Shown here in pieces: positions 1 to 19,169 of a stretch of 52,815 bases of DNA. The DNA comes from a virus (taxonomy: Duplodnaviria; Caudoviricetes). The DNA is taken from IMG/VR virus record IMGVR_UViG_3300042868_004895, positions 1-52,815 of that record; one strand, written 5' to 3'. The notes beneath the pieces are model-generated. The model did not search any database. It was not told the DNA's origin and worked only from the letters and a program-made list of their open reading frames with translations. The position numbers were made by a program, and so were the translations under genes. Numbering within the stretch: the first letter of the stretch is position 1; each line of letters starts with the position of its first letter.

Positions 1-2387
1 TGCTGCTCGATGGCGACCTTGGCCTGCAGCTCTGCGGCGTCCATCTGGGCGTCTATCTGCATCTTCTGGGCGTCCATCTGCATGCGCTGCGCCTCGGTTT
101 GCGCATCCATCTGCATGCGCTGCGCGTCGGCCTGTTGCTCGGCCTGCAGTTTCTGCTGATCGAGCTGCAGCTTCTGGCCTTCCAACGCCAGACGCGGGTC
201 TTGCATTGGCTGTTGCTGGAATTGCTGCATGACCTGCTGCGCCTGCTGGATGATCTGCGGTATCTGCGCGAACACCTGACTGCCCTCGGTCAACGCGGAC
301 GTCGACGCCTCGGCCAGCATGCGGTCGAGCGCCTTGCGTCCCTCGATGTCCTTCGGCTCCATGTTGCGCATCACGTCGCCGAGATCCTCGCCGTCCAGTG
401 CTGCGGTCGACACGTCGAAGACGGACGATGCGTACCAGAGCGCGACGTGCTCCTTGATGTGGTTGAGCATGGCGGGGATGTACACCGGCGCGAACACGGG
501 GTTCATGCCGAACGTCGGGGACATCATGTACGCGATGTGCGTCTGCAAATGCGCCAGATGGTCTTGGTTCGGAAAGGCCGTGACCGGCCGACCGAGCGAC
601 GCGGCGACGTTCTCGTTGACTGCGTTCTGCTCGGAAGGCTCAACGGCTGGGTTGAGCAGCTCCTTCGCGTTCGGCACCTTCAGCGTATCGAGGATGCGCT
701 CCTCGACCTTGCGCATGTTGTACATGCCGGGGATGGCTGCGGCGCGTTGCGCCACTGCCTGCACCTGCGCGTAGCGCTGCGCCTCGCTGAAGATGTTCGG
801 GTCGGAGACCGGCACGACGTCAAGGACGCCATCGAAGTCTTCACGCTTGGCCAGCTCTTCGCCCGCCTCTTTCTCCAGCTTCTCGTCGTCGAGATTGAAG
901 CCGTTGAGACGGTCGAGGATGCGCAGCATGCGCCCCATTGCGTCGTGCAGACGGCTGTGGATGGCCGAATAGACGACTGCGCCCTGCTCCAGCTTGGCAA
1001 GCGTCGTGCCGACCGGCGCGTTGGGGTTGCCGTCGGCGATGTCTTCCATCGACGTACGCACAACGCCCTTCGCCGCGTCGACAAGGAAGCCGAGCAGGCT
1101 GAAGAGCACAGGCGATGGCTGGTTGTACGGCAGAGGCATGGCCAGCTTGCGCACGTCGTCGACGTTCAGGCCGCCCTCGATCTCCTCGGTCTGGCCCGGC
1201 TGGATGGACAGGCTCTGCCCGCCGGATGTGCCGCCCTTGAGCTTGAGCATGGTCTGGCTGTTGCTGATGTGCGCGCTGTCGAGCAGCGCACGCAGCGCGC
1301 CGGTGGCCGCGCCGGACAGGCCGCCGATCATGTGCGGCAGGCCGATTGGGTAAGCGCCGCGCCACGGGATGAACGGGAACTCAACGAACCAGTACATCTC
1401 GTCGCGTGCCGCGTCTTCCTCGTCCCAGTTGCGGTAAACTGCGAGTACCTTGCCCGTCGTCTTGTCGACGCTGACGATGTACGGCGCGTTGCCCTCGCCC
1501 TCTTCGACTTCCATCGTGACGTAGCACTCGTACACGATGCGCAGGCCGTCCTCGTTGTAGCTGGTCTGGTCACGGCCCTCGATGCGGTCGTTCGCCTGTC
1601 CGGCTACGGACTGCTCGGGCTCCATGCTGGCGGGTGCCAGATCCACGTCGCGGTACATTCCGTCGCGTACGCGGTTTTCGTAGTCCAAACTGGTAATATA
1701 TTGCACGTGCGTCTTGCGCTGCGCCGTGTAGAAGTTCGTCGCTGCGTAAGGCAGGAGCATGTCGTCAATCGGCACGAACAGGAACGTCGGCCGGTTGCGC
1801 GGCGTGTCCCAGCCGAGCTTCAGGTACTGCGCGCCGCCGAGCGGTAGCTGCGTCATGAGCTGCTCGAGCTCGGCGCGTACCTCGGGGCACTGCACGGTCA
1901 TCTGCCAGTTGAGCAGGCTCGTCTTGCGCTTGGCCTTGTCGACCTTGTCCGTCGTCGTTGGGCCGCTGATGCTGTCCTTGGCTGGGCCGCCTGACGGGAA
2001 TATCTCCTTCATGGCGCGCGCCGCGAAGTCGACGCAGGCCTCGGTCATGACGGGATGCACGACTTTCGACGCGCCCTCGAACTGCGCGCCGCCGGGAGCG
2101 TCATCGCCCAGACCAGTGCGGCGCAGGCCGTCCTCGTACTGCTCGTCGCGCTTCTTGCGCGCGTCCTTGTCCTTGCTGATCAGGTCGAGAAGCTGCGTCG
2201 AGAGGCTGCTCAGCTCGTGCTCGGGCATGTCCTCGGCAAGGTTGCTGTAGAATTCGTTCTCGGCCTTCGGCGCGGCGTCGTCGCCGAAGCGCACAATCGC
2301 GCCACCGTCCTCGGTGTCTTCGACCTCGTCGTCGTCAACGTCGGGCAGATCCACGTACTCGCCTTCGGGCATCTCGTCTTCGTCCAT
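1..2387 (-). CDS. Portal protein (3' end truncated by window edge)
   Basis: Absent from the ORF track because it has no stop in the window. ATG at 2387 after GAAGGA reads MDEDEMPEGEYVDL..NLAE..RDEQYEDGLRRTGLGDDAPGGAQFEGASKVVHPVMTEACVDFAARAMKEIFP.. and the frame is still consistent at base 1, where it is Q/M-rich. Lies directly downstream of TerL. Confidence 0.85.
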   Translation of the reverse strand, partial: MDEDEMPEGEYVDLPDVDDDEVEDTEDGGAIVRFGDDAAPKAENEFYSNLAEDMPEHELSSLSTQLLDLISKDKDARKKRDEQYEDGLRRTGLGDDAPGGAQFEGASKVVHPVMTEACVDFAARAMKEIFPSGGPAKDSISGPTTTDKVDKAKRKTSLLNWQMTVQCPEVRAELEQLMTQLPLGGAQYLKLGWDTPRNRPTFLFVPIDDMLLPYAATNFYTAQRKTHVQYITSLDYENRVRDGMYRDVDLAPASMEPEQSVAGQANDRIEGRDQTSYNEDGLRIVYECYVTMEVEEGEGNAPYIVSVDKTTGKVLAVYRNWDEEDAARDEMYWFVEFPFIPWRGAYPIGLPHMIGGLSGAATGALRALLDSAHISNSQTMLKLKGGTSGGQSLSIQPGQTEEIEGGLNVDDVRKLAMPLPYNQPSPVLFSLLGFLVDAAKGVVRTSMEDIADGNPNAPVGTTLAKLEQGAVVYSAIHSRLHDAMGRMLRILDRLNGFNLDDEKLEKEAGEELAKREDFDGVLDVVPVSDPNIFSEAQRYAQVQAVAQRAAAIPGMYNMRKVEERILDTLKVPNAKELLNPAVEPSEQNAVNENVAASLGRPVTAFPNQDHLAHLQTHIAYMMSPTFGMNPVFAPVYIPAMLNHIKEHVALWYASSVFDVSTAALDGEDLGDVMRNMEPKDIEGRKALDRMLAEASTSALTEGSQVFAQIPQIIQQAQQVMQQFQQQPMQDPRLALEGQKLQLDQQKLQAEQQADAQRMQMDAQTEAQRMQMDAQKMQIDAQMDAAELQAKVAIEQ

Positions 2388-5058: not shown

Positions 5059-5239
5059 CACCCTTTCACATCTTACTGTACTTGCACCGCACCATTAGCA
5101 TCAGCAACTTGAACTACAAGTTAAGTGCTGATGTACTGATGCGTGTTGCAGAGTGCACCGCGCAGCACGACGCAACGTGATGCGCAAATGGTGTAAATGG
5201 TGCAGATAAAAATAATTTGCAAAATAATGCAAATAGGTG

Positions 5240-5302
5240 TTGACCTACCTTCAAACCCACAGTATGAGGGTACATCAGTAACGAAGAAACGGAGTACACA
5301 AC
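5240..5302 (+). promoter_or_regulatory. Early promoter and conserved leader L1
   Basis: TTGACC(5240)-17nt-TATGAG(5263); ATCAGTAAC at 5274; GGAGTAC; ATG 5303. Confidence 0.75.
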
Positions 5303-5569
5303 ATGACAAATATCGAAGCTAAAGCAGAAATCGCCCGTCTCGCATCAGTGCCAGTCGCGCCAGATTATTTTGTAGCTACTGACGGCGAGCTTTGCGCAGG
5401 ACCAGTTAACGGTTGGGTATCACCTTATAGTTCAGAAGCCGCTTGTGCGACGGAAGCAGAAGCCGAGCGTCGCGCAGCTCGTCAAGGTGGTTGCGTAGTT
5501 ACACGCCGCTCACCAGCCGAAGGTCGCGCTACTCGCCTCGCCCGTCTTGAGGCGATTGCCGCAGCTTAA
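5303..5569 (+). CDS. Early hypothetical protein
   Basis: 88 aa ORF with GGAG RBS, first gene after promoter L1. Confidence 0.75.
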   Translation: MTNIEAKAEIARLASVPVAPDYFVATDGELCAGPVNGWVSPYSSEAACATEAEAERRAARQGGCVVTRRSPAEGRATRLARLEAIAAA

Positions 5570-5576
5570 CCCAACC

Positions 5577-5592
5577 GGGGGCTTCGGCCCCC
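5577..5592 (+). other. GC hairpin with cUUCGg tetraloop
   Basis: GGGGGC-TTCG-GCCCCC with no U-tract; sits just before leader L2. Confidence 0.7.
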
Positions 5593-5596
5593 ACCC

Positions 5597-5621
5597 TATC
5601 AGCAACACAGGAGTACATCAC
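5597..5621 (+). promoter_or_regulatory. Conserved leader L2 (no promoter of its own seen)
   Basis: TATCAGCAACACAGGAGTAC; ATG 5622. Confidence 0.7.
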
Positions 5622-5876
5622 ATGACCATCATCACACAAGCAATCGAGACGAAGTACCTCAAGGCCACCAACGTGCGCGGATCGCGCATCAAGGCCACCG
5701 CACTGGCTGGCAGCCTGACCGTCGGCTACGACTACGCCCTCGACAGCGACGCCAACCACGCGGCCGCAGCGCAGGCGCTCATCGCACGCCTCGGCTGGAC
5801 TGGCACATTCGCTCAGGGCGGCAACGCTGCGGGCACTGGGTACGTCTTTGTCAACATCGAAGGAGCGCTGGCATGA
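5622..5876 (+). CDS. Phage hypothetical protein
   Basis: MTIITQAIETKYLKATNVRGSRIKATA; start reassigned to the ATG after AGGAG. Confidence 0.8.
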   Translation: MTIITQAIETKYLKATNVRGSRIKATALAGSLTVGYDYALDSDANHAAAAQALIARLGWTGTFAQGGNAAGTGYVFVNIEGALA

Positions 5877-6173: not shown

Positions 6174-6323
6174 ATGACGAAGATCCACTCGAAGGCATAC
6201 GGCGGCAGCGTCACGACGCAGGTTCACCTGCGTGAGCTGTGGGCACTACTCGGTGCCAGCACCCAGCAAGAGGCCCGCAGGGCGCTTCAGCAACTGCTCA
6301 AAAATAGCTATTGCAATGCCTGA
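6174..6323 (+). CDS. Small hypothetical protein (49 aa)
   Basis: MTKIHSKAYGGSV..; preceded by ATCAGCTAAGGAG, a partial leader. Confidence 0.55.
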   Translation: MTKIHSKAYGGSVTTQVHLRELWALLGASTQQEARRALQQLLKNSYCNA

Positions 6324-6368
6324 TTGCATCCTTTAAGGGTACCTCATCAGCAACAAGGAGCACACGAC
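6311..6368 (+). promoter_or_regulatory. Early promoter and leader L3
   Basis: TTGCAA(6311)-17nt-TAAGGG(6334); ATCAGCAACAAGGAGCAC at 6346. Confidence 0.7.
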
Positions 6369-6632
6369 ATGATACGACCAATCATCAACAACAACGGCAC
6401 CAACGCCCTCGACCTTATCGACGCCCGCCGCAACGCGATGGCCCTGATCAACGAGGTTATCGACGCGCTCAAGCAGGTGACGCCCAACGGCCGCGACTAC
6501 CTCGGTGATCGCGACCGGCTCATCGCCGACCGTAACCTCCACTTCGACCGACTGGCAGCACTGCACGCACTGCGCGAGGAGCTACTCGACGAGGCACTGC
6601 ACATCCAACAGCAAGAGAAGGTGGGAGCATGA
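6369..6632 (+). CDS. Hypothetical protein
   Basis: MIRPIINNNGTNALDL..TPNGRDY; start placed after AAGGAG. Confidence 0.8.
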   Translation: MIRPIINNNGTNALDLIDARRNAMALINEVIDALKQVTPNGRDYLGDRDRLIADRNLHFDRLAALHALREELLDEALHIQQQEKVGA

Positions 6633-8170: not shown

Positions 8171-8228
8171 TTGCACATACCCTCAAACTCCTCTAGTGCG
8201 AGGGTATCAGCAACAAGGAGTACACGAC
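8171..8228 (+). promoter_or_regulatory. Early promoter and leader L4
   Basis: TTGCAC(8171)-17nt-TAGTGC(8194); ATCAGCAACAAGGAGTAC at 8206. Confidence 0.7.
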
Positions 8229-8462
8229 ATGATTAACTGGACTAAAGACGAACGCGTAGCCGCTCTGCTTCCGCAGATCCTCGCGCACATCAACGAGAAC
8301 GACGAGTTCTCGCTTGAGCATGAGGCTCAGCTTGAGCTGATCCGCGACGAGTATCTTTGGGAGCGCTCGAACGACTATCGCGGCGAGTGCGCCGACGCAT
8401 TCGAAGAGTGGCACGGCCAGCCGACAGTCGAAGAATACATAATCGCGGAGATCGAAGCATGA
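8229..8462 (+). CDS. Acidic hypothetical protein (77 aa)
   Basis: MINWTKDERV..; start placed after AAGGAG. Confidence 0.75.
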   Translation: MINWTKDERVAALLPQILAHINENDEFSLEHEAQLELIRDEYLWERSNDYRGECADAFEEWHGQPTVEEYIIAEIEA

Positions 8463-13024: not shown

Positions 13025-13081
13025 TTGCAATACGTGTTTGCATCGTTCATAGGGGGTCATCAGCAACAAGGAGTACCCAAT
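13025..13081 (+). promoter_or_regulatory. Early promoter and leader L5
   Basis: TTGCAA(13025)-17nt-CATAGG(13048); ATCAGCAACAAGGAGTACCC at 13059. Confidence 0.7.
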
Positions 13082-13390
13082 ATGACCGTATTAGCCACCA
13101 TCAGCAACATCCACCCAGCCGACCGGCTCGGTGACATCAAGGCCGAGATCGCCCGCCTGTCGGAGATTGCGAAGTTCCTCGAAACCGAGATCAAGGATCT
13201 TGGCGTCGGCGCACACGAGGGCGACCTCTTCCGCGCCACCGTCAGCGAAGTGGCCGAGCGTTCGTCGCTCTGCCCCAAGGCTGCCGAAGCCAAGCTCCGC
13301 GAGCTGGGCGTTGACGGTCGCTGGTTCAGCAAGAACCAGAAGACCACCAAGGGCTACACCGTACTCAAAATCGTAGCGAGGAAAGCATGA
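13082..13390 (+). CDS. Phage hypothetical protein
   Basis: MTVLATISNIHPADRLGDIKAEIA..EGDLFRATV. Confidence 0.8.
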   Translation: MTVLATISNIHPADRLGDIKAEIARLSEIAKFLETEIKDLGVGAHEGDLFRATVSEVAERSSLCPKAAEAKLRELGVDGRWFSKNQKTTKGYTVLKIVARKA

Positions 13391-15497: not shown

Positions 15498-16082
15498 ATG
15501 GCTACTCAAGTACTGCTCAAGAACGTCACGCTTGCCTTCCCCGCACTGGGCGAACCGCAGGCATTCGGCGAGGGCGAACCGGCATATGGTGCCAAGTTCC
15601 CCATCGAGCCAAACTCCGAAAACGCTAAGCTTATCGAAGACGCCATCAAGGCCGAGGCGAAAGAGGCGTGGAAGGACAAGGCAGACAGCGTGCTGGCTAT
15701 GCTCGTTGAGGACGGCAAGGTTGCCTACTCACGTCGCGAGTATCGCTCGAAGAAGACCGGCGAGCCTTACGCTGGCTTTGAAAAGACGTTCTACCTTGGC
15801 ACCCGTAACGCGTCGGTCCAGCCGTCCGTGTACGACCAGTACGGCGAACCTGTCGTCGGCAAGGCCGAAATCACCCGCAAGGCGTTCAGCGGCGCGGTTG
15901 TGAATGCGTCTGTCGAAGTCTGGGCGCAGGACAACAAGTGGGGCCGTCGCATCAACTGCTCGCTGCGCGGCATCATGCTGACCGGCGAAGGCCAAAGCTT
16001 CGGCGGCGGTTCAAGCCCAGCATCTGCAGACGAGTTCGCGGCCTTCGCTAAGGCCAAGGCTGACGCAGACGACGTCCTGTGA
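15498..16082 (+). CDS. DUF2815 ssDNA-binding protein
   Basis: NVTLAFPAL, WAQDNKWGRRINCSLRGI, FGGG followed by an acidic tail. Confidence 0.88.
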   Translation: MATQVLLKNVTLAFPALGEPQAFGEGEPAYGAKFPIEPNSENAKLIEDAIKAEAKEAWKDKADSVLAMLVEDGKVAYSRREYRSKKTGEPYAGFEKTFYLGTRNASVQPSVYDQYGEPVVGKAEITRKAFSGAVVNASVEVWAQDNKWGRRINCSLRGIMLTGEGQSFGGGSSPASADEFAAFAKAKADADDVL

Positions 16083-16333
16083 GCGTAATCGGCCACAACT
16101 CCAGCGAAGATCAACTGCGCCTCCTAATCGAGCGTGTTGAGCGTCTGGAAGAAGAAAAGAAGGGCGTCTCCGAAGATATTCGGGACGTCTACAGTGAAGC
16201 GAAAGCCTTCGGCTTCGATGCGAAAATCATGCGTCAAATCGTCCGCCTGCGGAAGATGACAAAGGATGACCGGGCGGAGATGGAGGCCATACTGGAGACC
16301 TACAAAAAGGCTCTTGGCATGGATCTGCTCTAA
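16079..16333 (+). CDS. gapR: GapR/DUF2312 nucleoid-associated protein
   Basis: DQLRLLIERVERLEEEKK..DIRDVYSEAKAFGFDAKIMRQIVRLRK..LETYKKALGM. Confidence 0.92.
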   Translation: MSVIGHNSSEDQLRLLIERVERLEEEKKGVSEDIRDVYSEAKAFGFDAKIMRQIVRLRKMTKDDRAEMEAILETYKKALGMDLL

Positions 16334-16345
16334 CTGTATAAGATT

Positions 16346-16473
16346 GGTGCGTTGGTCTCTATCCACCCTTTTAGACCAACGCACCTCTATTCTGGCGAGC
16401 CGCGCGTGGTGCGGGTGCTCCTGCGTTGCTGATACACGATCGCGCGGCTCACCAGAATAGAGGATGTATCAGC
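16346..16473 (+). ncRNA. Structured RNA in the DNA polymerase 5' UTR (two hairpins; loop antisense to early leaders)
   Basis: 13-bp perfect stem 16346-16358/16373-16385; 22-bp stem 16384-16406/16441-16463 with one C-A mismatch; loop contains GGGTGCTCCTGCGTTGCTGATAC. Confidence 0.7.
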
Positions 16474-18444
16474 GTGACTACACTTTGGCTTGACCTTGAA
16501 ACATACAGCACCGTGCCCATTAAGCACGGCGCGCACCGCTACGCCGAGGCGGCGGAGGTGCTACTCGTGGCGGTCGCAGTAGACGACGAGCCTGTCGCCG
16601 TGTGGGACTGCACGCAGGGACACGCCGACTGGCGTCAGCGCCTGCAGGCCCTGCTCGACGCAGCCGACACCGTCGTCATCCACAACAGCGCCTTCGACCG
16701 CACCATCCTGCGCCATCAAGGCGTGCACGTGCCCGTCGACAAGATCGAGGACACTATGGTTATGGCGCTCGCGCACAGCCTGCCAGCCTCGCTGGGCACG
16801 CTCTGCGACATTCTTGGCGTGCCCGTCGATAAAGCTAAAGACAAGTCCGGCAAAAAGCTGATACAGTTGTTTACGAGCCCGTGCCCACGGAACTGGAAGA
16901 TACGGCGCGCAACGTCGGAGACGCATGCAGATGAGTGGACCAACTTCGTCGAATACGCCCGCCTCGATGTGGACGCGATGCGAAACATACACGGCCGCAT
17001 ACCAAGATGGAATTATACACATAGTGAGCGGTACCTTTGGCAACTCGACCAAGGAGTTAATGACCGTGGTATCGCCGTCGATGTTGACTTCGCCAAGGCA
17101 GCAATCCGAGCTTTTCGACGAGCTTCTGGATCTTTGGCCACTCGTGCGGCAAGCCTGACCGGCGGCGCGGTTCCGAACACAACGCAGCGCGAGAAGCTTC
17201 TGCAGTACCTGCGCACGGCGCGTGGGCTCGAGCTTGAAGACCTGACGAAGGCGACCGTCGAGACCCTGCTGAAGGGCGAGCTCGATCCGCTGACGCGCGA
17301 GCTGCTCGAGATACGCCAGCAAGCCTCGGCCACGTCGCCTGCGAAGTACGGCGCGCTGATGGACGCAGCCTCGACGGACGGGCGCTTGCGCGGGACGATG
17401 CAGTTTTGCGGCGCAGGCCGCACAGGCCGTGACGCGGGCCGCATCTTTCAACCGCAGAACCTGCCCCGCTCGCCCGACTGGTTCGACGGCGACGTTCAGG
17501 AGCAGACGATTGTCGCGTTCAAGACGGACTGCGAGGACATCATCTACGACAACGTCAGCGAGCGCTGCGCCTTCGCCGTTCGCGGGTGTCTGGTCGCGGA
17601 CAAGGGCAAGAAGTTTGTGATCGCCGACCTTTCCAACATCGAAGGGCGCGTCCTTGCGTGGATGGCCGGTGAGGCGTGGAAGATTGAGGCCTTCAAGGCG
17701 TACGATCGCGGCGAGGGCGCGGACTTGTACAAGGTGACCGCCGGGCGCATCCTGAACAAGGATCCGTTCGAGGTGACGAAGGGCGAGCGCCAGACGCAGG
17801 GCAAGGTGCCTGAGCTGGCCGGAGGCTACGGCGGCGGCCTCGGTGCCTACCGCAAGATGGGCGGCGCAGTGTTCGACGCGATGGACGACGACACCATCAT
17901 GGAGATCGTGCACGCGTGGCGTAAGGCGCACCCTGCGACGAAGCGCTTCTGGTACGACGTCGAGGGCGCAGCCCGCTCGGCCGTGCGCGCCGAGGGGGAG
18001 AGTTTCGCCGTGCGCGGGGACATGGTGCGCTTCGACCGCCAGAAGGGTCCCGACGGCGTTGATTACGTTCGCTGCCGTCTGCCGTCTGGCCGGTACCTGT
18101 GCTACCGCAGCATGCACATCAACGAGGACGCCAAGCTCGTGTACGAGGGCATGAACCAATTCACGCGCAAGTGGGAGCTGCAGGAGACGTACTACGGCAA
18201 GCTGGTCGAGAACATCGTTCAGGCCGTGGCGCGCGACGTGTTCATGACCGGCATGCGCCGCGCCGAGGAGAACGACTATCCCGTCGTCCTGCGCGTGCAC
18301 GATGAGCTTGTGTGCGAAGTGCCCAACCACAAGGGCTACGACGCCGACGTTTTAGCGACAATGATGTCAACGAACCCGAGCTGGTCGATAGGCCTGCCGC
18401 TGTCGGCGGCGGGCTTCGAGGGCCTGCGCTACCGTAAGGAATGA
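16474..18444 (+). CDS. polA: Family A DNA polymerase with 3'-5' exonuclease (APSE/SPO2-like)
   Basis: Exonuclease DLETYS, HNSAFD, YARLDV; RTGRDAG; motif A ADLSNIEGR; motif B R..GKVPELAGGYG; motif C VHDE. GTG start 9 nt after AGAGGA. Confidence 0.93.
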   Translation: MTTLWLDLETYSTVPIKHGAHRYAEAAEVLLVAVAVDDEPVAVWDCTQGHADWRQRLQALLDAADTVVIHNSAFDRTILRHQGVHVPVDKIEDTMVMALAHSLPASLGTLCDILGVPVDKAKDKSGKKLIQLFTSPCPRNWKIRRATSETHADEWTNFVEYARLDVDAMRNIHGRIPRWNYTHSERYLWQLDQGVNDRGIAVDVDFAKAAIRAFRRASGSLATRAASLTGGAVPNTTQREKLLQYLRTARGLELEDLTKATVETLLKGELDPLTRELLEIRQQASATSPAKYGALMDAASTDGRLRGTMQFCGAGRTGRDAGRIFQPQNLPRSPDWFDGDVQEQTIVAFKTDCEDIIYDNVSERCAFAVRGCLVADKGKKFVIADLSNIEGRVLAWMAGEAWKIEAFKAYDRGEGADLYKVTAGRILNKDPFEVTKGERQTQGKVPELAGGYGGGLGAYRKMGGAVFDAMDDDTIMEIVHAWRKAHPATKRFWYDVEGAARSAVRAEGESFAVRGDMVRFDRQKGPDGVDYVRCRLPSGRYLCYRSMHINEDAKLVYEGMNQFTRKWELQETYYGKLVENIVQAVARDVFMTGMRRAEENDYPVVLRVHDELVCEVPNHKGYDADVLATMMSTNPSWSIGLPLSAAGFEGLRYRKE

Positions 18445-18933: not shown

Positions 18934-18992
18934 TTGCAACCTGTGTTTGCATATGCTATATACTGCGTATCAGCAACGAAGGAGTAAACCAC
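18934..18992 (+). promoter_or_regulatory. Early promoter and leader L6
   Basis: TTGCAA(18934)-17nt-TATATA(18957); ATCAGCAACGAAGGAGTA at 18969. Confidence 0.75.
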
Positions 18993-19169
18993 ATGTCTAA
19001 CAAATACACCGCATACGCCGTCTTCGAGAACGGCGACCAAGAAGTCCACGAGGGTCTGAGCCGCGCTCGCGCCATCGCCCGCTACGGCCAGTTCACCCGT
19101 CAGGTCCGCGACAAGCGCTATGGCGTAGCTGGCCCGATCAAGTCCTACGGCTGGAGGCTCGAAGCATGA
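18993..19169 (+). CDS. Small hypothetical protein (58 aa)
   Basis: MSNKYTAYAVFENGD..; strong RBS. Confidence 0.7.
   Translation: MSNKYTAYAVFENGDQEVHEGLSRARAIARYGQFTRQVRDKRYGVAGPIKSYGWRLEA

Follow-up and report, generated by a model that had tools for sequence, protein, structure and literature searches.

A conserved stem-loop upstream of polA in a phage clade as a candidate anti-leader RNA of the early operons

The window analyzed here is a whole IMG/VR virus record (IMGVR_UViG_3300042868_004895), a metagenomic phage contig of 52,815 base pairs (bp) with a completeness of 93% (CheckV). Within it we characterized a long stem-loop, hereafter the element, that occupies the 5' untranslated region (UTR) of the DNA polymerase gene polA and whose loop, as judged from related phages, co-evolves with the 5' leaders of the early operons. 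The genes of the early and replication arm lie on the plus strand, between approximately 5.3 and 21 kb of the window, and include those for a PriCT_2 and AAA_25 primase-helicase, a DUF2800 nuclease, an Enc34-type single-stranded DNA-binding protein, a GapR-like protein, the polymerase and an SNF2 helicase (Pfam assignments). The minus strand carries the structural genes. Among the INPHARED phages no close relative of the window was found, the best matches being Caulobacter phages with 66.5% identity over 45%.

The intergenic stretch between the stop of the GapR-like gene (16333) and polA holds a 13-bp hairpin that is followed directly by the long stem-loop. The features of this region are, in coordinates of the window:

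16079 to 16333, plus strand: GapR-like (DUF2312) gene (Pfam GapR_DNA-bd, E = 3.4e-34), always found upstream of the element.
16346 to 16385, plus strand: hairpin 1, from the fold, with a 13-bp G+C-rich stem (16346-16358 with 16373-16385) and a pyrimidine/U-rich tract.
16384 to 16463, plus strand: long stem-loop S1, with 5' arm 16384/6-16406 and 3' arm 16441-16461/3, from sequence, fold and covariation.
16396, plus strand: non-Watson-Crick stem position, C16396 facing A16451 (column 15 with 91 of alignment A3).
16407 to 16440, plus strand: loop of 34 nucleotides (nt), the reverse complement of which reads leader motif, 2 nt, Shine-Dalgarno (SD) sequence.
16416 to 16422, plus strand: anti-SD UGCUCCU, complement of AGGAG(C/U)A of the leaders, from sequence match.
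16425 to 16433, plus strand: anti-motif GUUGCUGAU, complement of the leader motif AUCAGCAAC, covarying with the leaders in other clades.
16459 to 16464, plus strand: SD of polA, AGAGGA, lying partly within the base of S1.
16467 to 16475, plus strand: GUAUCAGCG, cis partner of loop positions 16426-16435 (helix S2), spanning the spacer and the start codon's first base.
16474 to 18444, plus strand: polA, a family A DNA polymerase with 3'-5' exonuclease (Pfam DNA_pol_A and DNA_pol_A_exo1).

The core of S1 (16386-16406 with 16441-16461) comprises 21 positions, made up of 20 Watson-Crick pairs and the C16396.A16451 mismatch. It can be extended by the pairs C16385-G16462 and C16384-G16463, at the price of the last two pairs of hairpin 1, to yield 22 bp. 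At the base of S1, the anti-SD CCUCU pairs with the SD of polA. A preliminary description of this DNA had put forward a 22-bp stem with a 34-nt loop and a base paired with the polA SD, which is confirmed here from both sequence and fold. The plus strand of 16334-16500 folds at a predicted -74.5 kcal/mol (z = -5.85), and none of 200 shuffled sequences folded as well. At the position of C16396 and A16451, the window's clade has C.A and other clades have U.U, and relatives never show a standard pair there; a second, variable position, three pairs below it, is U-A, U.U or U.C. Relatives show a matching end of the gene upstream of the element (...LGxDLL and stop), and use ATG at the spot where polA of the window starts with GTG (16474). 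Hairpin 1, which shows compensatory changes in relatives (e.g., GGTGCGTCGGTCT/AGACCGACGCACC), is a possible weak terminator or 3' stabilizer.

The loop sequence 16413-16433 is the exact reverse complement of ATCAGCAAC-GC-AGGAGCACCC, as had been proposed: the 21-mer ATCAGCAACNNAGGAGCACCC is found without mismatch on the minus strand at 16413-16433, and has matches with 3 mismatches each at 5598 and 18969 (0.01 expected). Opening of the anti-motif (16425-16433) costs 1.0 kcal/mol in the folding model, according to which the loop is accessible. The leaders to which it is complementary have the form AUCAGCAAC-N1-2-AGGAG and begin six early transcripts or cistrons in the window:

5274 to 5305, plus strand: leader variant AUCAGUAAC...GGAG, with ATG at 5303.
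5598 to 5624, plus strand: leader copy without a promoter, after an GGGGGCUUCGGCCCCC hairpin, with ATG at 5622.
6346 to 6371, plus strand: promoter-proximal leader, with ATG at 6369.
8206 to 8231, plus strand: promoter-proximal leader, with ATG at 8229.
13059 to 13084, plus strand: leader of the element's own replication operon, with ATG at 13082; its AGGAGUACCC matches the loop over 10 nt.
18969 to 18995, plus strand: leader of the operon downstream of polA, with ATG at 18993.

These are the leaders of the preliminary description, the 5274 variant included, and all are present; their C/U variants do fall opposite G16428 and G16417. The sequence ATCAGYAAC occurs 11 times in the window, against 0.60 expected, and none of 100 shuffles reached 11 copies. 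Because five of the leaders (5274, 6346, 8206, 13059, and 18969) begin 6-7 nt past the -10 of a sigma70-like promoter (TTGCAA/TTGACC-N17-TAnnnn), the A of the motif is, by this geometry, the probable +1 and the motif the probable 5' end of those five transcripts. The first genes behind the leaders are mostly without a family in PHROGs and Pfam.

Other motif copies in the window (13100, 1260(-), and 31157(-)) fall within coding sequence. The minus-strand 9-mer at 1260-1268(-) is also present in G001 (31046) and G003 (15690), in a conserved coding stretch of a large minus-strand open reading frame (ORF; ...HISNSQTMLKLKG..., translated by eye), and is a coding coincidence rather than a leader. 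A ATCAGCAAC copy without SD lies in the divergent control region at 5100-5133, where it can form a self-hairpin with GCUGAUG 18 nt downstream; this copy is identical in the fragment L065. The early promoters (6311-6345, 13025-13058, 18934-18968, and 5215-5273) contain direct repeats TTGCAA-N7-TTGCA(T) across the -35 and the spacer, with an A/T-rich stretch upstream of them, and the repeats look like operator sites for a regulator. Beside promoterless leader copies stands an GGGGGCUUCGGCCCCC hairpin with a UUCG loop (window 5576-5597; L009 12863-12885; L068 2835-2855), placed either just 5' of the motif or between motif and SD, which may be a processing or stabilizer hairpin.

To describe the distribution of the element, IMG/VR was searched with the exact 17-mer of the loop, which returned 41 stretches, 36 with the whole element and five by chance (L140, L155, L162, L164, and L165). 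A search anchored on the stem arms likewise gave 41 stretches, six of them new and with small loop changes. The exact 15-mer ATCAGCAACAAGGAG was found in at least 117 stretches of viral contigs, nearly all of them single chance matches, and useful matches were obtained only in L065 and L068, both fragments of the early region. Both the loop core CCUGCGUUGCUGAUA and the anti-motif are invariant in 43/43 close relatives. A covariance model built from 31 distinct element sequences gave a single match per genome in six of six whole records, and matched 75 of the 81 IMG/VR loci that were fetched by alignment of polA (55-94% identical to that of the window). Four of the six loci missed by the model have no DNA upstream of polA (L250, L280, L302, and L305), and two have it (L242 and L310). 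Related phages that keep the leaders and miss the complementary loop, which the preliminary description had named as evidence against its proposal, were not seen; the antisense loop is present in those 75 loci. Among aligned whole records that bear the element, the identity of polA goes down to 68%.

The place of the element is constant, 3' of the GapR-like gene and hairpin 1 and ending at the start codon of the next gene. This next gene is polA itself or a small gene of 97-99 amino acids (aa), the stop of which overlaps the start of polA. The small gene (L221:16180-16476, with homologues in G001, G002, and G005) belongs to phrog_23243 and has a weak C-terminus of helix-turn-helix or repressor-like type; it is absent from the window and from G003, and therefore the element abuts polA in both. 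In the distant relative L012 (9221-9293), a transfer RNA (tRNA) gene, tRNA-Gly(UCC), directly follows the element, and an ORF of unknown function lies between tRNA-Gly and polA. A repeat search of L012 found no repeated leader cassette, and its motif copies came from a pattern search. In three RNA-library runs, 6-10% of the sampled words were recovered, as contigs, mostly with a likeness of 88-95%, so that these contigs come from relatives. One of them, a 638-nt contig (run X3, record 14), is approximately 92% like 15980-16477 of the window and spans the GapR-like gene and both hairpins into the small-gene variant.

An Rfam cmscan of 16000-16800 with E up to 10 gave only a chance match to mir-967 (17.8 bits against a gathering score of 70), and the whole window had no match at the gathering thresholds. 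The element is a well-supported structured RNA family that is absent from Rfam, and no earlier description of it was found in a limited literature search on Sandarakinorhabdus phages and c4/CI RNA.

The structure itself is carried by covariation. In 31 close sequences, 96.2% of the cells of the stem and the cis helix are standard pairs, against 31-50% with slid partners, and the covariation score is 0.128, against 0.053 for shuffled alignments (0/500 shuffles as high). Between SD and anti-SD, the pairs exchange as CG 19/UA 12, CG 15/UA 14/UG 2, and UA 12/AU 8/GC 7/GU 1. This helix corresponds to columns 3-8 with 81-86 of alignment A1 (CG/UA/AU/GC exchanges) and to columns 3-11 with 95-103 in RNAalifold. 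The downstream gene has its SD paired within a conserved helix, as is characteristic of SD-sequestering 5' UTR hairpins. When no structure was supplied, RNAalifold recovered S1 from 57 distinct sequences with 21 pairs, 17 of which show compensatory changes. In the alignment of these 57 sequences, the stem contains 28 G.U cells vs. only 2 A.C or C.A cells, and therefore it is the plus-strand RNA that folds, and neither the DNA nor the minus strand. A minus-strand RNA, which by the preliminary description would favor a decoy model, was rejected: this G.U asymmetry makes it unlikely, and what lies to the right of the element varies from phage to phage (polA, the 98-aa gene, or a tRNA), so that no conserved minus-strand promoter is possible there. 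We conclude that strong selection acts on a structure formed by the plus-strand RNA.

Read as its reverse complement, the loop of every member gives the motif, then 1-5 nt, then an SD. The 9-mers of loop and leader lie kilobases apart and co-vary in at least five lineages (AUCAGCAAC, ACCAACAAC, GUCAGCAAC, CUCAGCAAC, and ACCAGCAAC), in addition to a CAAGCAA core. In every lineage in which the loop is changed and a leader is contained in the fetched DNA, the same change is found in the leaders or start-site motifs:

L283 family: loop GUUGUUGGU; ACCAACAAC after promoters in L286, L288, L289, L292, L295, and L296.
L282: loop GUUGUUGGU; ACCAACAAA in the same contig.
L281: loop GUUGCUGAC (GTCAGCAAC type); two leaders GUCAGCAAC, 2/2 matching.
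L251: loop GUUGCUGAG (CTCAGCAAC type); leader CUCAGCAAC, 1/1 matching.
L012: loop GUUGCUGGU; ACCAGCAAC adjoining two start codons.
L299: loop with CAAGCAA core; leader with CAAGCAA core.

Covariation of loop and leader in related phages was the test that the preliminary description itself had proposed, and its outcome is positive. Start-site-linked cores were counted promoter-blind in non-redundant sets of elements and leaders: at loci with a ATCAGCAAC loop, 65/99 are ATCAGCAAC and 0 ACCAACAAC, and at loci with a ACCAACAAC loop, 7/9 are ACCAACAAC and 0 ATCAGCAAC. Most of the off-diagonal cores inspected lie in coding sequence (CCCAGCAAC, GCCAGCAAC, AACAGCAAC, and several CTCAGCAAC). In a quick IQ-TREE tree of polA the loop states form separate lineages, with 9 label changes over 9 groups. 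We also aligned the loop reverse complement locally to its own locus, leaving out loci of less than 6 kb and duplicate elements. The top plus-strand match was a motif-led leader in 40 of the 49 loci, and all but one of these leaders follow a promoter; one is located at +6233 and the others at approximately -3000 to -3500 or +2400 to +3900. One leader of G003 is identical to the loop reverse complement over 19 nt, and in G001 (locus L248), L243 and L294 the match between loop and leader runs beyond the SD. The internal deviations within a genome (window 5274; L012 position 31) are both compatible with G.U pairing. On this comparative evidence the loop co-evolves with the 5' leaders of the early operons.

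Copies of the motif that lack a promoter are tied to translation starts all the same, always standing just 5' of an SD or beside a start codon (5598 in the window, 354 in L009, 4572 in G004, 3530 and 17097 in L012). This speaks against the explanation that a phage or host protein binds the 9-bp motif as DNA, or that the motif belongs to the start-site region of the promoter, with the loop copy as an inverted site, e.g., a regulated roadblock before polA, and with copies that co-evolve with the protein. Such a site would account for the fixed distance of the motif from the -10, at the probable +1, in five of the six window leaders, and for the fact that the copies of any one genome share a single variant, which a binding site would be expected to show. 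In several targets the likeness to the loop reverse complement extends 1-4 nt upstream beyond the motif (e.g., GTGTATCAGCAAC in L261, L269, and L278), and these bases are absent from the RNA if transcription starts at the motif. A DNA site would, in contrast, leave unexplained that in each clade an SD complement accompanies the inverted copy in register, that this copy sits in the loop of a stem which forms at the RNA level (the G.U asymmetry), and that it is the only non-coding inverted copy in six whole records. No candidate binding protein was identified in this analysis, and we regard the DNA-site explanation as quite unlikely.

The loop is complementary not only to distant leaders. In the window's clade its 3' half (UGCUGAUAC) is the complement of GUAUCAGC(G/A), a stretch whose end falls in the start codon of the downstream gene. 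This cis helix shows covariation: GAUAAC loops face GUUAUC before the start codon, GCUGAUAC loops occur with GUAUCAGC and GCUGAUAAC loops with GUUAUCAGC, and the pair 57-90 is CG in 12, AU in 11 and other in 1. At least 9 contiguous bases of complementarity between the loop and its own start region are found in 23/57 distinct elements, vs. 5.4% of shuffled flanks. In L012, L243, and L308, the anti-SD half of the loop matches the SD region of the element itself. Taken with the covarying SD/anti-SD pairs, these observations would fit a purely cis-acting translational operator of the polA operon, in which the stem hides the SD, the loop forms a pseudoknot or an alternative helix with the spacer and start codon, and the likeness to an anti-leader comes from shared motif and SD blocks. 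However, many members retain the anti-motif although their cis helix is absent or at chance (L265, L267, L269, L278, the L283 family, L304, L299, L294, and L298), and clades that lack the motif in the start region next to the element retain it too (L265, L267, L269, L278, L243, and the L283 family); cis pairing therefore does not explain the anti-motif. The order of the blocks argues in the same direction, since the own start region reads SD then motif in the window's clade, whereas the loop reverse complement reads motif then SD; across all clades, colinearity with the two loop halves is confined to distant leaders. A purely cis-acting operator would also leave aside that the loop 9-mer tracks leaders kilobases away. 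Once the full 21-bp stem has formed, the 5 + 5 linker nt would have to span approximately 59 Å, and the cis helix is therefore probably incompatible with the lower stem (a geometric estimate, not a computed one). The pairing of loop bases with sequence 3' of the stem, a feature of H-type pseudoknots, thus covaries in the window's clade and is at chance level in several clades, its steric fit being doubtful by this estimate. Overall, we consider a purely cis-acting operator unlikely.

The leaders could compete only with this cis helix and not with the stem. The preliminary description had raised a toehold-like remodeling of the polA leader by the early leaders, which does not hold: the leaders are complementary up to the loop borders and nowhere within the 21-bp stem, and leader binding therefore cannot unzip the SD. 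After the SD, leaders continue with (C/U)ACACGACAUG and the like, without complement to the stem arms GAGCCGCGCG/CGCGCGGCUC, and by the promoter geometry nothing is transcribed upstream of the motif that could displace the stem. Riboregulators and toehold switches, as in the work of Isaacs (2004) and Green (2014), reportedly lock the ribosome-binding site (RBS) or start region in a hairpin, the stem of which is invaded by a trigger in trans. The element resembles them in its locked RBS and in the existence of a trans RNA complementary to part of the hairpin, and differs from them at the point where the complementarity ends.

The stem, which is found in all members with a length of 21-28 bp, corresponds to approximately two turns of double-stranded RNA with internal non-Watson-Crick positions, the characteristics of an RNase III hairpin. 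These positions are kept at a fixed height (C.A or U.U, and the variable position three pairs below), and the element is intercistronic and directly follows a stable hairpin. It could hence be mainly a site for RNase III processing and stabilization of messenger RNA (mRNA) between the GapR-like gene and polA, as between T7 genes, with a loop kept for recognition by the enzyme or another protein. RNase III sites, however, are not known to need a conserved loop sequence, and the covariation of loop and leaders would be left unexplained, which makes this very unlikely as the main role. The likeness to the RNase III sites in the early mRNA of T7 and in the N leader of lambda lies in an intercistronic, internally mismatched stem of about 20 bp, and in a cleavage that could, for the element too, free the RBS and leave a stabilizing 3' hairpin; the difference lies in the conserved loop that covaries with distant leaders. 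RNase III processing is compatible with the explanation that we prefer, and not exclusive of it.

That explanation, which we hold to be somewhat better supported than its negation, is a same-strand antisense or "anti-leader" RNA, similar to c4 and joined to an SD-sequestering stem, with a putative direction and effect of the pairing. The element would be made on the plus strand within the transcript of the replication operon and have two functions. Its long stem locks the SD of the next gene, being polA or the 98-aa gene that is translationally coupled to polA in many relatives, against the 5' anti-SD. Its loop would be the anti-leader, presenting the anti-motif and, 2 nt away, the anti-SD CUCCU, colinear with AUCAGCAAC-N-AGGAG of the 5'-terminal leader with which every early operon, the element's own included, would begin. 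Pairing of the loop with the translation-initiation regions of the leaders, in trans or across 3.3 kb of the same transcript, would occlude the RBS, and the free 5' end of the target would ease formation of the helix inside the closed loop. Where the start region of the downstream gene carries the motif, as in the window, the loop would pair in cis as well. The pairing would repress translation, and so damp or time the early arm from the transcription of the replication operon onwards. RNase III would cut the stem of approximately 21 bp at the conserved mismatches, by which the SD of polA would be freed and the upper hairpin released as a small RNA. In a more far-reaching version, for which we see slightly less than an even chance, a single master anti-leader within the replication operon would pair with the leader of every early operon, its own included, and act genome-wide and post-transcriptionally as a shut-off or timer of the early arm; this lock-and-key arrangement would extend across a Sphingomonadales phage clade, with cleavage both switching polA on and releasing the regulator.

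Several observations weigh against an anti-leader RNA. Translation of polA from a locked SD is unexplained unless the putative RNase III step takes place. The energy of the duplex is unexceptional and does not single out the leaders: RNAduplex gave -35.7 kcal/mol at a G+C-rich coding site (11368), vs. -33.4 to -36.2 kcal/mol for the leaders. The closed 34-nt loop restricts the length of a continuous helix, and because the spacing between motif and SD differs (0-8 nt in leaders, 1-5 nt in loops), the two half-duplexes are often interrupted. At the sequence level a complementary RNA is the same as an inverted 9-bp DNA motif, and therefore a DNA-binding factor, or concerted evolution of cassettes, is compatible with the covariation. 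There are also exceptions to it: the leaders of L260 and L263 begin with C/GUCAGCAAC, whereas the loop reverse complement there reads AUCAGCAAC, and in both L234 and L275 position 1 of one leader is C. Lastly, the RNA-library contigs show neither strand nor ends, and the one from run X3 is indistinguishable from DNA carry-over.

The exceptions in L260, L263, L234, and L275 deviate at position 1 of the motif only, where five real leaders have G (a wobble with the U of the loop) and three have C (a mismatch). As to the energies, RNAcofold of the element with each leader gave a free-energy difference (ddG) no different from that with shuffled leaders (e.g., for 6346, 10/100 shuffles were as low), a result that is uninformative either way because RNAcofold is unable to place an intermolecular helix inside a hairpin loop. 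We therefore used RNAduplex on the loop only, combined with opening energies, by which leaders are among the best sites and make up 5 of the 8 top loop sites in the early arm.

The closest known mechanism to the proposed anti-leader is, on paper, that of c4 of phages P1 and P7. In the passages on c4 in PMC5320573, this RNA is described as processed from the same transcript as its targets, with three stem-loops and two separate target-binding loops, of which b' occludes the RBS and a' gives specificity. Measured by that account, the element is similar in that it is antisense and shares strand and transcription unit with its targets, and in having loop bases complementary to an RBS and to an upstream specificity sequence, here predicted to be held by one loop. 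The processing of c4 by RNase P from a longer transcript into a small active RNA, after which it acts, would be a further likeness, if the element is processed as we infer. There is no homology in sequence or structure, the covariance model of C4 being not matched, and against the three stem-loops and two target loops of that description the element is one long hairpin with one 34-nt loop. It further differs from c4 in its place in the polA 5' UTR, with a stem that also locks the SD of polA, in its predicted targets, the leaders common to all early operons (six in the window) in place of one immunity operon, and in a phage that looks lytic or non-integrated, given the absence of further copies of the element from the sampled Sphingomonadales genomes.

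Two further comparisons can be drawn. The CI RNA of satellite phage P4 is processed from an operon leader, is complementary to several sites on the same-strand transcript and controls replication genes; it causes premature termination of transcription and serves prophage immunity. The predicted targets of the element are instead the translation starts of several operons, and nothing indicates a role in immunity. RybB and OmrA/B are small RNAs with multiple targets, in which a short, conserved, single-stranded seed pairs with many mRNAs at or near the RBS. In the phage, the shared sequence is on the side of the targets, at the very 5' end of the mRNAs, and the regulator lies within an mRNA leader.

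A search for the loop pattern in the genomes of 185,579 species gave one match, a spacer of a CRISPR array in Sandarakinorhabdus limnophila DSM 17366. The spacer (L227:5453-5482, NZ_ATVO01000010.1) lies between repeats gtttcgatccacgcccccgcatgggggcgac and is identical over 30 nt to the L267-type loop, and the reverse complement of the protospacer is preceded by TTC in most of the phage elements. Repeat and TTC protospacer-adjacent motif are of what we take to be type I-C. In 151 sampled Sphingomonadales genomes the covariance model found only this spacer, and no copy of the element in the 150 others. The spacer suggests S. limnophila as the probable host of this uncultured clade, and implies that the sequence targeted by the host is one with little freedom to vary in the phage.

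If the pairing is real, one RNA loop would address a whole set of operons through a shared 5'-terminal tag, as a natural case of such an arrangement, and the comparative record, with at least five matched lock-and-key variants, holds ready-made compensatory pairs. It would also extend the same-strand antisense regulators of phages (P1 c4 and P4 CI) from immunity to the timing of lytic genes, and would couple the control of the early genes to translation of the DNA polymerase.

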